Source of the DNA: a virus
Strand: one strand, 5' to 3'
Length of the DNA stretch: 64,000 nt
IMG/VR virus record: IMGVR_UViG_3300025015_000001
Shown one piece after another: positions 42,874-62,700 of the stretch; position 1 is the first letter of the stretch; the number at the start of each line of letters is the position of its first letter. The position numbers and the translations under genes were made by a program. The notes under the pieces were generated by a model. It made no database searches. It was given only the letters and a program-made list of their open reading frames with translations, and was not told the DNA's origin.

Positions 42874-44653
42874 GTTATACATCTACAGCTCAGCTTGCCA
42901 GTAATAGCGCCGCTTCGGTTTACCATCCACACCCTCAGGCGGCAGCGGAAACTCCTCATGTTCACCAAGAGCCCAAAGAATCGCCATCCGAAAGCGCGTA
43001 TTCTCTTCTTCCAGTTTCTCAAGAAGGTCGGACAATTCCTCATGTGTTGCTGCCTTCGCGCAAAGTCTTGCCGGTCCCATATCAACCCCCATGTATTTAA
43101 CAACGCCATCAAATCCGACTCGCTACCGCTCGCGGCTTAGCTCCGCGTTAGCTGCTCAGCCAGTTTAATGCTCTATTTTGTCGCCGTTCTTCTTCGTCGC
43201 ACTGCACACAGAGACATTTGCCACACCGAGATGATGCCTCCCTTATCACAACCATATGGGCTTCGGTTTTTCCGCAAGAAAGGCAAGCTAACAAATTGCT
43301 GGAATCAGATTTCGCTTTGCTCAACTGTTCACCTCCACGGTATACTAAAACCCGTTTACAGCATGGACATTTGTCCGTAACGGTCGTGACTCTCCTAACT
43401 CCTGCGCCGATATTGTAGATTGCGAATGGGACACCTTTGCGAGACAGTGCTTCAATGAGCCACTGCATTCCCGCAAGAAATCCAGAGGTTATATCTATTT
43501 CCTGCCCTGTGTCTATTTTCTCTATCATCCGTTTTTTCCAATCAATGCTTATTGTTTTTGCCATACATCCTCCCAACCAATAGCTGAACGGGACAGGCCC
43601 GTTATCTCTGTGTTAAATTGAGACGAGGAATGGAGTCGAACCATCTGAATAGGCCGCCTGATGGTGCAGCCTATTCACTATTCCCTTGTCAATTTTCCAG
43701 TCAGTCATCCCCGACAGGAGGTTTCCCGCAACGCTCGCCTCGCCATAATATTTTTTAACCAATCGCTGAACGGGGCAAGCCCGTTAGCTTGCTTTGCTTA
43801 CATCTACCTGGTTGCCCCATTTCCCGCCCATATCCAAGCCGATACTTTCTCCGGCTTCTATTATGGACTTCATGGCGTGATCTGGAAGTTCCAATACCGC
43901 TGTATCTCTCTCATATGAAGTTAAAGGCAACCCTGACATTTCTCGGATACATTTAATAGCATGTCGTAACGCATAGTAGGTTGATTCCAGATTATCAATA
44001 TTAATCTGGATGGTTTTGTTTACTGGATTTATTTTCAAATTTATCTCCTTTTAGCTAACCAGCGGATGGAGCCGACGTTACGGCTCATCCTGGGTGTTAT
44101 GTGTGTTTTGTAAGGATGCACATCCCCCTTTAATGCGCCTGTGCAGCTGCATCAGCTTCCACGTCACATCACCTGCCTTTCACATAACCAATAGCTGAAC
44201 GGGACAGGCCCGTTATCTCAGCATTATCACTTTAAAACTATCGGTGCCCCGTCTTTGTAGAGGCGCGGAGTAATATCTCCGAATAGTCCGGCTTTGACAT
44301 ACTGAATGCCCGTCGCGTGATCGGTATAGACCGACAGGCCGGAACGCTTCCCGAACAGCTTTCCCGGTCTGTAGTCGTCAGTGACGTCATAGGCCCAGCG
44401 AAAATAGTCTCCCGCGAAAGATATGGCAATCAATGCTGCAATGAAAATTAAGAACTTCATGTGGTCCTCCATAAAAAAGTGATAACAAGGCTGGTGGTGT
44501 GGGGCACACCTGAACAACCTTTGCGCGAGTCAACATATCACCACCTCTGCATTGCATGGTAGCGGTGCATGGTGCAATCCGGCACTGTAGTCGCACACCC
44601 GGCGGCCAAGAGGGATTGCCCAAAATAGGGCGACCCTCACCTTTACGTTATAC
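42874..44653 (-). mobile_element. Integron cassette array 1 (six attC-like sites, no integrase)
   Basis: attC-like imperfect palindromes at 43095-43153, 43571-43618, 43753-43800, 44053-44102, 44182-44229 and 44480-44653. GC-rich. Cassette genes (42883-43092, ~43148-43564, 43784-44038, ~44227-44460) end at attC sites. Confidence 0.8.
43618..43744 (-). ncRNA. tRNA-like structured RNA forming a whole cassette
   Basis: 7-bp acceptor GGCGAGG/CCUCGUC, T-arm GAUGG-UUCGACU-CCAUU abutting it, and a 12-bp long arm; lies between two attC sites. Confidence 0.55.
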
Positions 44654-53248: not shown

Positions 53249-53332
53249 TTTCCTTCCTCCTTTTACGTAGTAAATTCTCTAGGCTGTGCCTAGAGCTTTT
53301 TTTCTTAATTGTTATTTTTAGAATTTCTAAAA

Positions 53333-55284
53333 TTATTCACTTTTGTTTATCTCTTTCTGGCACTCCTCATATTCTTTTTCAATTTCATCCCATCGTTCTT
53401 TATCCCCCTTATAAAATACTTTTTTGCATTCATCCCATCCTATCTCAATATGTTTAGTATCAATCCTATTCCAACAAAATCTAGTAATTGGAAGACATAT
53501 CATACAATGAAATATTTGATTAATCGTATCTCCATAATATTCTGCCACATCATATACTTCATTGTCTCTTGTAATCTTAATCTTGTTTAAGAAAGGAATT
53601 TTAATATGCGGCGTCTTATCACATATCCACCTTATACTATTTGCTAGTATGAATATATAAGCTGGTGCTTCATCTAATGATATAGAAGCTGTTTTATAAT
53701 AACTATTAGTTGCATAGCGCCATTTTTTCATAGTACCCCCTTTTACCCACGTAGTAAAACCATTTTTAAATTCTTAATAACAGCAAGATGAAAGTTTGTC
53801 TTTTCGTATTTTTTTTCTTTAATTATACTTTTTAGTTTACTAACTACAAATTGAGGTTCTCCTTTAGATATTATTTTGATAATCTCTTCATACTGTTGCT
53901 TATAATTATAATACAGCACAGACCAATTATTTTTTAAATGTTTTGAATTCATAGTAAAACATTTACTATTTTTACGTTGGATGTTTGGGTTATCTGGCAA
54001 GGATGATATGCAATCATTTAACTGCATAACTATAAAATTAAGTTGCTTTTGTATATCATATATAGATTCTTGCACTTTTGCTAGTTTCATATTTACTCCT
54101 TTATCCTAAATTGCTAATTTTAATTGGTACTTTATGTTCCAATAGTTAAATATACTCTTTTTAATACTATCGTCTATCGCGTCATCCTCATATAACTCTA
54201 CTAAATTATTAGCATCAAAACAATCAAAGTTTTTATTATCCCATTCACATTCTAAATTATATCTTCTGAAACTGCATTGATGATTCCATTCCTGTGTGGC
54301 ATTAAACTTATCTAAACTGTCACAGAATATTTTTAGTTTCTCTAAAAGATCTATGCTGTTATTGTTTTCTGTCTCGTCTAATAATTCATCTGCTAAGTCT
54401 AGGTTTCCATCGGCTTCGTGTGTTTCTAATCTGTCAATAAAAGATTCTATGTTATCTTTTAACTCGCTTATCTCTACCCCATCAAATGTGCTCAGTATTA
54501 ACCAGCCGCCACTTCTTCCTGCTTGCGCTAAGTCATAATCTATAGCTTCTATCTCCGGTATACCAGCATTCCAATCATACTGTCTATATTTAGCATCACC
54601 AACAAACCCAAGACCGTCTTCACAGCATTCGTCGAAAAAACATTCATACCCTTTTAAATATCTCTCCCACAGCTTATCATACTTACTATTTATTTTCTCG
54701 CTTCCAGAATGGCCTGTCTCATCATTATTATGCACTTTAATATTCCAGGCTAAGCCTTGAGTTCTATCATGGTCATAGCTTCTATAATCTCTACTTTCAA
54801 ACCACTTTTTTAGTGAAATAAATTTAGATAGGATTTTGGTCTTTCTTAAATCATATTCCAGTGTTAGCATTTGATTACCCCCTAAAATTTTTTATTACCC
54901 ATGAAGAGCTTTAATAAAATCTTCTACAGCATTTACTCTATTATCTATTACAGGATTTGGCATATTTGTATTCAATTGACTATTATCTAGGCCTGTCTGT
55001 TTAATGGGTGTGTATGTAAAATAGTCATAGTCCCTACCTTCTCTTTTTAGATAGAGTTGTCCGCATCCACATTCTATTATAGTAGCTTCCATACTGTCCA
55101 TTTTATTTAAAAAATCTTTATCATACTGCATGCCTCTGTACGGAGACATCACTATCTTTTGTCTTGAAATATCTAAACCACAAGAACATATCGGAGTTCC
55201 ATTACTACCTATCTTTATAGTTTTCATATTCCTACAACGTTCATATATTTTACCATCTACTGAAAATGTGGTGATTGTTCTCAT
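53333..55284 (-). CDS. Hypothetical ORFs (53333, 53743, 54106, 54895)
   Basis: ORF track; RBSs present. Confidence 0.55.
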
Positions 55285-55343
55285 TATTTTCTCCCTTTAC
55301 GTAGTAAATTCTCTAGGCTGTGCCTAGCTTTGCTTCTCCTGAG

Positions 55344-57299
55344 TTCCAACATTTGCGTCAACGCGGACGCTTCGCCTTCGGCTCCGCGCCGGTTACGCCA
55401 GCGTTAGAGCGCATCATGAAACTGTCTGGGTACTTTCCATTTTCAAAGGTCGCGCGCCCTTTGTCGTGGCTCGATTCTTTCCGCTTCTGGCTGCTGCAAG
55501 CCCGCCAGAACATGAGCTTACCGACTCAGCTTGCAACTTCCGGTATAGCGCGGCCAACCTACTTTCGTCAAACAGCTTCATGATGCCCTCTAACCTGTCG
55601 TTCAACCCGGACTCCGCAAAAGCGCGGAGCCGGTTAACTTTACGTTATGCATCATCTAGCTTGTTCGCCCAATCCAGAAGTTCCTTCTTGCTCTTAAAGA
55701 CATTGTGCCGTTTCATGATGATTGAAATCTTGGCAAACGTGAAAAGCAAAAACAACAACCCGGTAACGAATGTCCAAAATGTGCTGCCTTGGCTTATGTA
55801 GATGCAAAACGCCAGCAAAGAGAACGTCACAAAATCTTTGTAAAAAGACTCCAGAACGCTTTCTCTTTTGTCGATCACTACAATCTTTTCTTCGCTCATT
55901 CAAACCTCCAAAGATGCATAACAAGTCATTCCAGCCGATCCTCGCTACGCTCGGACGGCTGAATTCCGGCGTTATCCCAAATCGTCGTAACAGTTTTTAC
56001 AGTGCATGTCTGGTTCAAGTCCCATGTTGTACCAAACTACACCATACGGGTGTCCTCTTGCTCTGCACCAAAACGCAGTCCATCGGCTTATTCCGTCGGC
56101 TGGTTTTCCGAGAAGAAATTTCCACCAATCCAAAGTGAGCCAGTGCATTTTCTAACCTCCCGTTCGACCCCATACGGGGTCAACTAATTGTTGTGCGTCA
56201 CTCGTCGCTGAACGGTGATCCGCCGCCAAATACGATTGCGACAGAGCATCCGTCCGGCTCTACTCGCAGGATGTTGTCCCACCCGCAGTGTTCGTCTCTG
56301 CAAACAACAACCGCATCATCGTCATATCCATCTAGTGCTCTAAGTAATTCTCCCTTTGTCATGCTCATCTCCTTTCTTCGTTGGTGCCGGCGATCCGGTG
56401 ACTTTTACGTTATGCCTACAACTCAAGTAGGCGCTCTGGTATGCCAACAACATAATCAAATCCAAGTTCAACACAAAAATGAGAATCGTCCCCAGATAAA
56501 TGACTATAATCATCAGTAATCACGCCGACCATCTCATCAATATCGTGATCTATGTAATCATCCCAATGATCTCGACTTTTAAGCCACCTTGTTGCCCCGT
56601 GCTTAACTTTAACTTTGTCTCCGATAGTCATAAGTCTCTCCTTTGCATAACAAGTCAGTCCAGCGGGCGAAAAGACCCGCCGCTGACTTCATCGTTAGCA
56701 CCCAAGATTTTTCATCCGCTCGTACAGCTTCGGGGCTTTGCCGGTCGGGAATTCTTCGCGGAACATCGATTCGAGTTCGTCCCAATGCTCAACCAACTTC
56801 GCCCACGTCTTGCTGAGTTTTGCTACCTCGCCAAGGTGCTGCCGCGCCTCTGGTACGGCGTCCAAAAACTTGATGCACCGTTTCAGGTCGTCGGGGTCGC
56901 TCGGGTGGTTTCCGAACCGCGCCCACGATTCGTTTGGCTTCACGCCACCGACAGCACAGGCCATCGCCTCGGAACTGATTCCGCGCTCGCCATGTGCAAA
57001 CCAGTCAAGAATTTTGTCTTTCATTTTTCCTCCGTAATTGTGTGCTAACCCTGCGCTCCAGCGCGACGGCGGAAAAGCACCGCCGCGCCTGAGCTATGCG
57101 TTGGGCGTCAATATCTCCACGCCGATTAAATCGGTTCGGTCGAACCCAGACTCACCGAATCCACCTGCTGATAATTTCTCCTCAATGACTGGAATATCCA
57201 TGTCAACGGTTTCAAAACTTTCGCTCCTAGAGCCGCTAATATTGTCCTGCCATGTACGCTTAAAAATTAGTCTGACCATATCATCTCCCTATGTCTAAC
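55344..57299 (-). mobile_element. Integron cassette array 2 (six attC sites plus one degenerate, no integrase)
   Basis: attC at 55344-55409, 55588-55650, 55916-55977, 56150-56196, 56645-56700 and 57043-57106; half-site at 56409-56415; entry core GTTAGAC at 57293-57299. Cassette ORFs: 57094-57279, 56695-57024, 56416-56631, 56198-56362, 55972-56148, 55645-55899. Confidence 0.85.
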
Positions 57300-57357
57300 C
57301 ACTCGTAGTTCTCTAGGCTATGCCTAGAGCTTTATTTTTATTTTAGAATTTCTAAAA

Positions 57358-58185
57358 CTATTTTTTACTATTCGTGTGTAACTCAAAGTCTAAGAGCTTT
57401 CCTTTTATCTCATTTGTCAATTCTACTTTTTCTTTTATATAATTGAATTGAGTATAATCTTTTATACGGGCACCATATTCTAAGAGGAGTTTAACTGTAG
57501 CTGGAGAGTGTGCCCATATTGCGTTACATAGGGTCAAGTTTGTGATTTTCGCTCCGTTGTCTAATAATAACTTTGTTGTACCAACATAGCCTCCTACTGC
57601 CCTATTCAGAGCATCCCCATTTTTAGCATTGACATTTACTCCGGCTTTTATACAAGCTGCCACTTCTTCCACATTATCATCTCTTACTGCAAACAAGAAT
57701 TTATCTATCAGCGCATACTTAGCTATCTTAGCTTTTATTTTATCATTAAATACAAATGATTTAAACATCTTATCTATTTTAGAATTTCTAAATTCGAATC
57801 TTACTTTGCACTCATTCCAATAATTTTCATAACCACTAAGAATACCAATATAATGAGATATATAAGACTTAGCAGTTTGAATCTTATTAAATGTTTCTGT
57901 ACTATTTTCTTTTATGTACTCTGGTATATTGTTGCTGTCACAATTAGGACAATCCCATGTTATTTTATTTCTTAGTGCAGAGCTCACCCTACTCATATGC
58001 TTCGCAGTAGATACACTATAACTATTTGAATTAATTAAGTATTCATTATGGGATAATCTTTTTGCGATAGGGAAGTGCTTACCATAAGAATATATAGTAT
58101 CATCCTCAATAAACATATTAGATGCTTGCCCTTTAGTCGCACCACTTGCAAATTGTTCTGCTAATGAACTATGGTTGTTTCCCAT
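57358..58185 (-). CDS. Ankyrin-repeat protein with phage N-terminal domain
   Basis: AVRDDNVEEVAACIKAGVNVNA and TKLLLDNGAKI repeats. Confidence 0.8.
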   Translation of the reverse strand: MGNNHSSLAEQFASGATKGQASNMFIEDDTIYSYGKHFPIAKRLSHNEYLINSNSYSVSTAKHMSRVSSALRNKITWDCPNCDSNNIPEYIKENSTETFNKIQTAKSYISHYIGILSGYENYWNECKVRFEFRNSKIDKMFKSFVFNDKIKAKIAKYALIDKFLFAVRDDNVEEVAACIKAGVNVNAKNGDALNRAVGGYVGTTKLLLDNGAKITNLTLCNAIWAHSPATVKLLLEYGARIKDYTQFNYIKEKVELTNEIKGKLLDFELHTNSKK

Positions 58186-59762: not shown

Positions 59763-62700
59763 CTACAAAGCAGCAAGAGCTGATGTTTTACGTAAAAGTT
59801 CATCGTATATCTCTTCCGCTGTCATTGCATCCAATCTGACAAGATTGCCTAGATCGTAATCTGTATCTCCGATAGTTGCTGTAAGAAGTTTAGTAACTAC
59901 CCCAAACATTTTTGGCCAGACTTTGTGCCTGTATTCCACTACTTTGACATCATCATATATAGCATGGTCTTTATTTTTTAAAATTTCTACTTGCTCAGCA
60001 ACTGATAGTTCGTTTAGAAAGTCAAGTGTTTTTGGGCGAAATTCACGCCTATAACATTTAGGGTCATCTAATATTTTTTCTACCTCCCTCCGCCTAGCAT
60101 GCATCAGTCGTGCAGGAATACCTTCCTTTATTATGTCTTCCATCTTACATCCTCCTTTTATATTTTCTAAAAATACTTATTAGCTCTTTTTTATTATAGA
60201 GAGAATTACTCTAGCCTCCGCTAAACATTCGTCTGCTGGCATGTTATTCTTTCCTACAAATGTTGAAGTTAAATAACTGTTTATTGCCTTCTCTGCATCG
60301 TTGTCGCCGGCCATCTCCTGCCACCTACTTACCTTCTCCACTAACTTGATATCGGTTGGTTCGTCTTCCTCAGTAGGTATGGCGAACACCCCCCTCAAAG
60401 ACAGTCCTTAGATTACTATTTAACTCATTAATAATTTTAATCTTGTATTCTTCTGTCAGTGTCTCTGCTTTTATGTTCTTCATAAGCACCGTGCAATTTC
60501 CGGCACAGATTGATAGACTCTTCAATACTCCGTCTAAAGCATTATACAATTCATCATTAGTCATTTTGTTTCTCCTTTTAATTTTAGATTTTCTAAAAGC
60601 ACTTCTCCCAACAATCTTCATCATCATCCCAATGCCTTGTATCTGATATTGTGAATGATATAAATAATCCCATTAGTCGTAAGTTAAAATAGAATCCTGC
60701 GTGGTCTTGCTCTTTAGTCCACTCAATATCTACTGTAAATAAATCTCCCAATATAGTATGTATAATAGATATGTAATGACCACATCTATATATGTTCAGG
60801 CTTAGCTCCATAACGCAATACATAAACGTAGGCTCAAATAATGTTATCTGAACACCTAGTCGTTTAAACTTTGTTAAATATTTATTAATACACAATAAAT
60901 CTTTTTGCCAAGCAAAGCTGAGTATTTGATTACTTTGAAAATTTGCATCTTTCCATTTTAACATATTAGCCTCCTCTTACAAAGTTAAGTAACTAACACA
61001 ACCTAAAAATTATTCTTTTACATACTTCTTCGTAAGTTCATCAAATATTTTGGTAGCTTCTGCCATAGCTTCATCAGTAGTTTCAGAATATGCCTTTACT
61101 GTGAAGCGTACCTCATTCTTCGCTCCCAATGTTATCTCGACACTATTGGGATTAAGTGCCTTTGTAGCGTCCACATTGTCAACATGTATCTCCCCATTCG
61201 CATTTCTTTTAAATGACATTCCTTCCATTTTAGTATCCTCCATTTTAATAGTAAATTTTAAATACCAAGTTTTGTAATTGTTTCTATATGCTGCCTAGCT
61301 AAGCTTCTTAATGCTTCGCGCCGTTCTGCTACAGAAAGTATTTGTTTTATATCTGTAGATAACTCCGCCGCTATATGATTTACTATTCTATCTGCGAGCT
61401 CGTTCTCAAGACGAGTAGCCATAGCTTGCTGTAACTTTTTAGTATCAACAAGCTTCCATACGCCTGCCATAAAGTCAGCTGGAATTTTTACTCTACTGCT
61501 GTAGTCAGGTATTACCCACCCGCCATCCGATATAAATCTAAGCACAGCTTTTTCTGCTAAGTTCTTAACTTCTCTTTCAAAGTCACTCATGTTAGTTTCC
61601 TCCTCTATGTAGTTCTCTAGGCGGAGCCTAGAGCTTTTTCAAATTTATTTTTAAGTCTATTATATTCTATTAATTCTCTCGTATCTATATCCTTTTGTTT
61701 TTTCTTCTCCTCCTGTAGTAGTATACTCTTATGGTGCTCCGCTGCTATTACTCCTAATTTATATAATTCATCTATATCATATTTGTTATTTTCATCTAAT
61801 TTTATTAATTCTAATTCTGGTTCGTCATCGTGTATTGCTGCGATTATTATACAGTAAGAATCATCGGAGAATACTATACCTAAGTTCCCATTAAATTCAT
61901 TGAGCCTAATCTTACTGATTGTTTTTCCTACTAATTCATTCTCATTTATTATACATTTCATAATTATTCGCCTCCTAATTTTCTTTTTAATTTCTCGTAC
62001 CTAAGCATAGTCTCAAATGTAGGTATTTGACTACTCTTGAATAATACGTACCACTTCATGGTGCTACTATGTGAGCCAGCGCTGTCCCAATCAAGTAAAC
62101 ATTCTACATAATATCTACTGTCCTCTTCCGATACTCTAGTTATCACATATAAAGAGCTAGCATAACTGGAAGATATCAAATCACCTACTTTAAATTTATT
62201 CATGATGCAAACCAGTTATGGCATGTTTCACAGTAGAGTAACCCACTATGTACTTCATCTAAACCACTCTCACACACAGGACATATTTCATCGTCATTCA
62301 CAGTTAGCTCCTATCATAACAAATCAAATCAAATAGTAATCAGCTACTATCCGGTCTGCGCATCTAAAATACTATTAATAGATTCCTCTTTAATAGCTAT
62401 TCCCTCCACCAAAAGTTCAATTTCTCTTTTTAATTTTTCTATTAGAATCGGAGGCTTCTCGGAAATATAATACCATTGCTCACCTTCCCCAGTTATAATC
62501 ATATGATTACCAAATGTTTCAACCTTATAATTATAAACTTTACCATTCTGATTGGTGAGAGTCAGTTCTCCTTTGCTAGAGTAAGACATAAGTTCTTCTC
62601 CTATTTTAGAATTTCTAAAATTATATTTCTATATACTCATCGTAGCATTCTGTAGAATTAGGACTTAATTTTAGTTTACACTGATACATGATAAACCCAT

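Follow-up and report, generated by a model that had tools for sequence, protein, structure and literature searches.

Can a phage carry a genuine array of integron gene cassettes, and if so, which strand of its recombination sites would an integrase act on? We addressed this question in a 64,000-nucleotide (nt) stretch of virus DNA, hereafter the window, which corresponds to the reverse strand of bases 98270-162269 of the 194,269-bp IMG/VR record IMGVR_UViG_3300025015_000001. Positions 55344-57299 of the window hold a block, referred to here as array 2, in which seven minus-strand open reading frames (ORFs) of 55-109 amino acids (aa), each with a Shine-Dalgarno (SD) sequence and an ATG, are separated by imperfect palindromes. 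Integrons are the textbook bacterial gene-capture device, and the rule that genes follow the top strand of their attC sites is treated as near-absolute. The original prediction, made from the sequence alone, had read the block as a cassette array that the phage acquires and shuffles through a host integrase. We found that six of the palindromes are genuine attC sites and that the phage encodes no integron integrase, and that the top strand of every one of these sites is the strand opposite to the genes.

attC sites of array 2 and the absence of an integrase

We searched for attC sites using a strict core motif consisting of AAC, 5 nt, three paired bases, one bulged base, three paired bases, a loop, the six partners, 5-6 nt and GTT. 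The motif was calibrated on bona fide integrons, namely the aadA1 cassette of R100, three plasmid class 1 arrays and the Shewanella prophage M16-3 with its intI and approximately 13 arrayed cassettes. Across these sequences, all checkable attC sites were recovered, each on the strand of its gene, with three stray hits in approximately 130 kb. Within the block, the motif identified six sites on the plus strand and none on the minus strand, while block shuffles yielded approximately six hits on each strand in 194 kb, equivalent to about 0.06 per 2 kb. Both inverse core boxes (R'' ending in AAC and R' beginning with GTT) are present in the six sites, and a seventh palindrome lacks the AAC box. 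The L''/L' stem, the extrahelical base in one arm and the spacers of about 5 and 5-6 nt were likewise found in all six, on the plus strand only.

Two covariance models were then applied to these sites. Model R1 represents the six phage sites read on the plus strand, whereas model R2 was built from a bacterial-only alignment (aadA1, arr-3, aacA4, cmlA5 and one Shewanella attC) aligned through R1. R1 matched the attC of aadA1 with 39.9 bits (E 4e-8) on its coding strand, compared with 16.2 bits on the other strand, and also recovered the arr-3, aacA4, cmlA5 and Shewanella attC sites on their coding strands. R2 in turn recovered five of the six phage sites with E values from 1.8e-8 to 1.1e-4, all on the plus strand, and the sole further match in the 64 kb was a weak one in another array of the window, array 1 (E 0.54). 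Because R2 also matched Shewanella attC sites absent from its training set, always on their gene strand, the model generalises. The sites of array 2 are as follows:

attC-a, 55344..55409, plus strand: 66 nt, boxes TTCCAAC and GTTAGAG; last site in the direction of transcription; matches the motif; R2 29.9 bits, E 3.9e-5
attC-b, 55588..55650, plus strand: 63 nt, boxes CTCTAAC and GTTATGC; matches the motif; R2 33.2 bits, E 5.6e-6
attC-c, 55916..55977, plus strand: 62 nt, boxes GCATAAC and GTTATCC; bulge spacing as in aadA1; R2 42.8 bits, E 1.8e-8, the top-scoring match of the entire R2 search
attC-d, 56150..56196, plus strand: unusually short at 47 nt, boxes TTCTAAC and GTTGTGC; found by the motif and by R1, missed by R2
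decayed attC (half-site), 56366..56415, plus strand: short stem and R' box GTTATGC, no R'' AAC box; no match to R1 or R2
attC-f, 56645..56700, plus strand: 56 nt, boxes GCATAAC and GTTAGCA; matches the motif; R2 37.7 bits, E 3.8e-7
attC-g, 57043..57106, plus strand: 64 nt, boxes TGCTAAC and GTTGGGC; matches the motif; R2 28.2 bits, E 1.1e-4

These results demonstrate that the six sites are genuine attC sites. They bear out the count of six complete sites and one half-site given in the original prediction, and the outcome that it named as refuting the array, an attC model without hits, did not occur, given that R2 matches five of the six.

Profiles PF00589 and TIGR02249, covering tyrosine recombinases and IntI, had no match in the whole 194,269-bp genome, which extends to the complete phage the earlier statement that the window holds no intI. 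The record has direct terminal repeats and a completeness estimate of 100%. Because attC sites are present and no integrase occurs in either the window or the complete genome, array 2 is a cluster of attC sites lacking an integrase (CALIN), that is, at least two attC sites with no integron integrase nearby; it is not a complete integron, in which intI lies beside the array.

The block also stands out in composition, as predicted for a GC-rich 2-kb segment in AT-rich DNA. Its guanine-plus-cytosine (GC) content is 49.8%, compared with 31.6% and 32.2% in the 2-kb flanks, 34.8% in the window and 34.5% in the phage genome overall. The genome contains three attC-bearing, multi-kilobase GC-rich islands, two of which lie in the window (approximately 42.9-44.7 kb and 55.3-57.3 kb) and the third outside it. 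Among the phage genes are those for a baseplate wedge protein and for further tail components of the myovirus type. No close relative was found among isolated phages, and a megablast search with the array 2 locus returned no match. All public runs containing this stretch are labelled groundwater metagenomes, except for one labelled soil.

Reversed polarity of the attC sites and their genes

To establish which strand of the phage sites is the top strand, we compared the position of the extrahelical base. All bona fide attC sites read (aadA1, arr-3, cmlA5, aacA4 and Shewanella) carry the extra base on the coding strand in its 5' arm. The six phage sites, read on the plus strand, align column for column with the attC of aadA1, and when their minus strands are folded, the bulges fall in the 3' arm, as they do in the bottom strand of aadA1. 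Because the bulge sits in the 5' arm of the plus strand, the attC top strand is the plus strand of the window, while the genes lie on the minus strand. In a canonical cassette, the gene lies on the attC top strand and the attC follows its gene; in array 2, all genes occupy the attC bottom strand. The original prediction had taken the cassettes as canonical and had not seen the opposite bulge polarity, so this part of it does not stand.

Gene orientation was scored from ORFs conditioned on an SD sequence, an approach that replaced a longest-ORF tally, which is noisy in GC-rich DNA. Four of the five intervals of array 2 were inverted and none was canonical; the fifth, which contains two genes and the half-site and was scored as unclear, likewise has no plus-strand candidate. 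The same scoring of IntI-bearing bacterial arrays gave 10 canonical intervals and 1 inverted. Moreover, all three arrays of the phage have the same polarity, and the strict motif found no site on the minus strand of any GC island in the genome.

This polarity bears directly on how the cassettes could move. IntI cleaves within the 5'-AAC-3' of the strand it binds, and the arm facing this triplet is the one with the extrahelical bases (Nivina 2016, PMC5027507). These rules, combined with the bulge polarity, therefore indicate that IntI would fold and cut the coding strand at its 5' box. Our preferred reading, which we consider probable, is that the block is an authentic cassette array lacking an integrase, in which the attC sites are turned round relative to the genes and a host IntI would cut the 5' box of the coding strand. 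Six functional-looking attC sites and one decayed site would thus separate seven small minus-strand genes, and the coding strand would carry the recombinogenic "bottom-strand" form, with its AAC box at the 5' end and the extra bases in the 3' arm. A host-supplied IntI would fold this strand and cut it at the 5' box, each hairpin would move with the gene behind it, and cassettes would be captured or exchanged by the host enzyme in trans. The SD sequences of ORF5 and ORF7 sit inside the preceding attC, so that each ribosome-binding site is carried by the hairpin, in line with a mobile unit composed of a hairpin and the gene behind it. The genes would most likely be expressed by read-through from a phage promoter and stem-loop module at 57311-57360. 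The seven genes are listed below in the direction of transcription:

ORF1, 57094..57279, minus strand: 61 aa; ends in TPNA, its C-terminal PNA being encoded by the attC box
ORF2, 56695..57024, minus strand: 109 aa; phrog_1229, a widespread phage family; stop TAA inside the attC-f box
ORF3, 56416..56631, minus strand: 71 aa; orphan, the search returning only itself; SD AAGGAG
ORF4, 56198..56368, minus strand: 54-56 aa; weak match to phrog_19687
ORF5, 55972..56148, minus strand: 58 aa; rich in cysteine and tryptophan; SD inside attC-d; 12 homologues with 57-91% identity
ORF6, 55645..55899, minus strand: 84 aa; small hydrophobic protein ending in LDDA; stop TAA in the attC-b box; SD GGAGG
ORF7, 55414..55581, minus strand: 55 aa from the ATG; low-complexity sequence; doubtful gene

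Homologues of ORF2, ORF5 and ORF6 and a paralogue of ORF1 place the genes on the minus strand, and four of the seven genes are shown to be real. As predicted, the small genes end at or within an attC: three of the stop codons are the TAA of an attC box itself, and the remainder lie 1-12 nt from a box. They had also been described as promoterless, and a scan of the minus strand inside the block for sigma-70-like promoters found none, which agrees with that description but is weak evidence. ORF3 and ORF4 probably form one unit, because the half-site between them has no R'' AAC box. The first gene of the third array (L082:671-862, genome 76470-76661) is a paralogue of ORF1, with 33% identity and an E value of 4e-10. 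Both proteins end in PNA from the attC box, and GTTAG(A/G)C precedes both genes; chance may not be the likely reason that the same small-protein family heads two arrays.

ORF2 has 74 homologues and 487 relatives in viral contigs, and one homologue is 94% identical (P0001). Its AlphaFold model is all-helical, with a predicted local distance difference test value of 95.3 and a predicted template modelling score of 0.88. Pfam gave nothing for this protein, and when the model was compared with the PDB by Foldseek, nothing matched below E 2; the family is a common phage protein whose fold is apparently unsolved. ORF6 has 189 cluster representatives at E<=1e-3.

Our literature searches found no paper describing a reversed gene polarity of attC arrays, and the accessible part of Qi et al. 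2023 (PMC9892861) does not mention it. Clusters of attC sites without an integrase were already known in phages (2023), and the reversed gene layout was in no paper that we found.

Origin of the array and alternative explanations

The first 20 nt of attC-c and attC-f occur exactly in 33 bacterial genome loci, where approximately 4 would be expected by chance. The carriers are mostly freshwater or groundwater Betaproteobacteria, together with Shewanella; four of the five carrier genomes tested encode IntI above the NCBIfam cut-off, and their arrays are canonical. The 44-nt core of attC-g was present at approximately 270x in run X5, where the phage is at approximately 6x, and was found in 12 array-carrying metagenome contigs, several of which hold long arrays. 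By SD-conditioned scoring, the genes of these arrays are mostly inverted, and one array contains both orientations. Two longer contigs with this core look phage-like: one encodes a YqaJ-type recombinase, and the other, of 36 kb, carries a DNA methylase (N6_N4_Mtase) between two attC sites on the opposite strand (L131:3088-4092), a reversed cassette that plausibly acts against restriction.

The attC-d site recurs in four metagenome runs with different flanks on both sides, and the ORF2 family lies between reversed-polarity attC sites in viral contigs L002, L006 and L007. A further copy of ORF2, 82% identical, occurs in contig L001, where its neighbours are ordinary phage genes and no complete attC adjoins it. 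The sequence comparisons support the view that the cassettes of array 2 belong to a pool common to other genomes. In one metagenome array (L133/L135, the same array read in both directions; 5.7 kb, ten attC sites, 45% GC), canonical cassettes apparently stand side by side with reversed ones, and arrays outside phages may therefore contain the reversed type as well.

The ends of array 2 are less typical. The elements that border it are:

solitary box GTCTAAC (coding strand GTTAGAC), 57293..57299, plus strand: marks the upstream end of the array; not accompanied by an attC body
phage stem-loop, 57311..57329, minus strand: on the upstream side of the array, with the palindrome TTTTAGAAATTCTAAAA in front of it
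phage stem-loop CTAGGC-N3-GCCTAG, 55313..55327, minus strand: just downstream of the array in the sense direction

At the upstream end, the lone box follows the phage stem-loop by a few bases; at the downstream end, a complete attC is followed by 16 nt containing AGGAG and then by the second stem-loop copy. The stem-loop occurs four times in the genome (window 53279-53293, 55313-55327, 57313-57327 and 61617-61631), each time before a gene. An A-rich, AT-rich stretch lies just upstream of three of the four copies, two of which also have the palindrome TTTTAGAAATTCTAAAA, and is missing from the copy just downstream of the array. On the plus strand, three copies resemble intrinsic terminators, that is, against antisense transcription. 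Lying between two copies, array 2 thus fills one inter-stem-loop slot, and transcription probably enters it at the 57311-57329 stem-loop.

The original prediction placed an entry crossover at G|TTAGAC and an exit crossover at G|TTGGAA. The boxes themselves exist, as GTCTAAC at 57293-57299 and TTCCAAC at 55344-55350 on the plus strand. The predicted points, however, are 3' boxes of the coding strand, both R'' by polarity, and therefore not canonical crossover points. Other copies of attC-d in metagenomes offer a comparison: their homology ends exactly at the plus-strand GTT and continues 8 nt past the other box. We consider the junction assignment unsupported rather than disproved. Array 1 (window 42874-44653) has the plus-strand heptamer GTTATAC at both ends (42874 and 44647), a pattern that is expected for canonical IntI insertion with plus as the top strand. 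Its attC sites are mostly short and divergent; 44053-44102 alone passes the strict motif, and the model matches 43095-43153 weakly.

We also examined whether the array varies among samples. Contigs from other samples span both array ends with zero mismatches and at the depth of the flanking phage contigs (runs X5, X7 and X9), the left end being covered by contigs 55298-55627 and 55238-55417 and the right end by contigs 57067-57700, 57053-57534 and 57034-57553. The original prediction pointed to relatives with an empty site or a changed cassette order, and neither was found. An empty site was seen neither among the contigs of the runs nor among the relatives searched; the flanking 275-aa and 129-aa genes had no relatives in viral contigs and only partial, distant matches in GenBank phages. 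Array parts left uncovered in runs X9 and X11, at 2-4x depth, are uninformative.

A joint between 55327 and 57341 in three runs was considered as an empty site or 2-kb deletion and rejected: its 22 inserted letters and what follows them are the sequence beside the 53279-53293 stem-loop, joined here to the stem-loop of the 129-aa gene, and the array is therefore not deleted. In runs X5, X9 and X11, contigs connect the 55327 stem-loop with sequence flanking the 53293 stem-loop, as would be expected from a circle or a tandem duplication of a 2,034-bp module (window 53294-55327). The joint may represent stem-loop recombination or a de Bruijn assembly artefact, the latter because it spans a 32-nt exact repeat.

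How far do other explanations account for these data? That the palindromes are ordinary intergenic hairpins, such as terminators or repetitive extragenic palindromic (REP)-like elements in an acquired GC-rich island, or that the block is an assembly chimera, seems to us very improbable. Intergenic hairpins are common in phages, and an Rfam gathering search of the window matched no family, yet a model trained only on bacterial sites finds five of the six and nothing else that strong in 64 kb, the boxes, spacers and bulge position are all canonical, and no T-run follows any site on the coding strand. The contigs bridging the junctions at equal depth in three runs rule out a chimera. A more serious alternative, although still an unlikely one, is that the array originated outside this phage, in some other phage or a bacterium, arrived by homologous or illegitimate recombination, for example between the flanking stem-loops, and no longer recombines. 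Array 2 is set precisely between two of the four copies of the stem-loop module, neither of its outer ends is typical of IntI products, one attC has decayed, the content is identical across the runs examined, and the stem-loop joint seen in three runs may reflect stem-loop recombination. However, that joint may be an assembly artefact of the exact repeat, six of the seven sites retain every structural feature of active attC sites, the phage has three separate arrays of the same polarity, and the same attC cores occur in other contexts within the same samples. Such an island would account for the location of the array and not for the reversal of all its genes.

A different possibility concerns the direction of reading: the sites could be functional in mirror image, with crossover at the G|TT of the coding-strand 3' box, cassettes composed of a gene and the attC behind it, and only the side of the bulge mirrored. 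On the coding strand, array 2 indeed reads as an inserted series, running from G|TTAGAC, a leader and ORF1 to a complete attC and G|TTGGAA, and the start box GTTAGAC is a better fit to the last attC's 5' box (CTCTAAC) than is the present 3' box of that attC. In addition, GTTAGCAC precedes three ORF2 homologues in different phages whose upstream attC bodies differ. This arrangement would need top-strand recombination or a recombinase of the opposite strand preference, whereas strand choice follows the extrahelical bases and cleavage occurs in the AAC of the bound strand (PMC5027507), which points to the other box. The GTTATAC ends of array 1 on the plus strand fit the canonical rule, and the sequence shared by the attC-d copies stops at the plus-strand GTT and overruns the other box. 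With identities of only 46-58% among the ORF2 homologues, constraint instead of a breakpoint may explain why they share GTTAGCAC. Taken together, we regard mirror-image function as quite unlikely.

Several observations also weigh against our preferred reading, in which host IntI would cut the 5' box of the coding strand. Neither outer end of array 2 fits canonical IntI insertion for this polarity. The array content is identical in four further runs, and no contig joint falls at any attC in them; no recombination was seen. At 47 nt, attC-d is shorter than the comparison attC sites and escapes the bacterial model. The bacteria sharing the attC type have a far higher GC content than the phage. 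Among the genes, ORF3 is an orphan, ORF4 has a weak match alone and ORF7 looks doubtful.

On balance, a host integron integrase is the most probable route by which the array was acquired, and capture by such an enzyme in trans is plausible. The original idea of a phage-borne integron array thus holds for the genuine attC sites, the missing integrase and the shared cassette pool; shuffling, by contrast, finds no counterpart in the four further runs, which show no reordering. We also put forward, tentatively and leaning slightly against it, a broader proposal: phages may keep their own mirrored cassette pool, in which the hairpin travels with, and often supplies the ribosome-binding site for, the gene behind it, and which host integrases would shuffle among phages and bacterial arrays. 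The mirrored orientation may persist because the folding strand is the non-template strand, or the lagging-strand template, of a rapidly transcribed or replicated phage genome.

If this is true, phages would draw on integron machinery for accessory genes, probably including anti-defence genes, and the reversal would change which gene travels with which hairpin. It would also offer a direct test of how strand choice and the direction of replication or transcription shape cassette traffic. For array 2 itself, the result is narrower: a second array of the phage is verified, and its proposed insertion junctions are not upheld.

Comparison with known systems

Array 2 shares many features with canonical cassettes (class 1 aadA1, arr-3, aacA4 and cmlA5, and the Shewanella chromosomal-type integron in prophage M16-3). 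The inverse core boxes, the 5-nt and 5-6-nt spacers and a one-base bulge after a 3-bp stem are common to both, as are the variable loop, the stop codons in or beside a box and the tight packing of small genes. Unlike canonical cassettes, array 2 has no intI that could anchor an attI, its upstream end is a phage stem-loop module, and the attC bottom strand is the one that encodes its genes.

The surroundings of the array recall another type of phage module. Promoter-stem-loop modules reportedly flank mobile gene modules in T4-type phages, as Arbiol et al. are said to have described in 2010. Similarly, repeated modules of a stem-loop and a leader bracket small accessory genes in the present phage, and array 2 lies between two copies; the likeness is one of layout. 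In contrast to the T4-type modules, only four copies of the stem-loop are present here.

The closest parallels are the virulent phages Tetrasphaera phage TJE1 and Pseudoalteromonas phage PH101, for which a recent study reports attC arrays without intI (Qi, Rajabal, Ghaly, Tetu, Gillings 2023, PMC9892861). In that study, IntI1 recombined five of six phage attC sites with attI1. TJE1 and PH101 resemble the present phage in combining an attC array and small genes with the lack of intI. Unlike array 2, TJE1 has its attC sites, found with the bacterial model at 244-293 and 1462-1519 on the plus strand, on the same strand as orf1-orf3, so not all phage CALINs are reversed. Compared with TJE1 and PH101, the phage described here carries three arrays, and array 2 alone contains seven sites.

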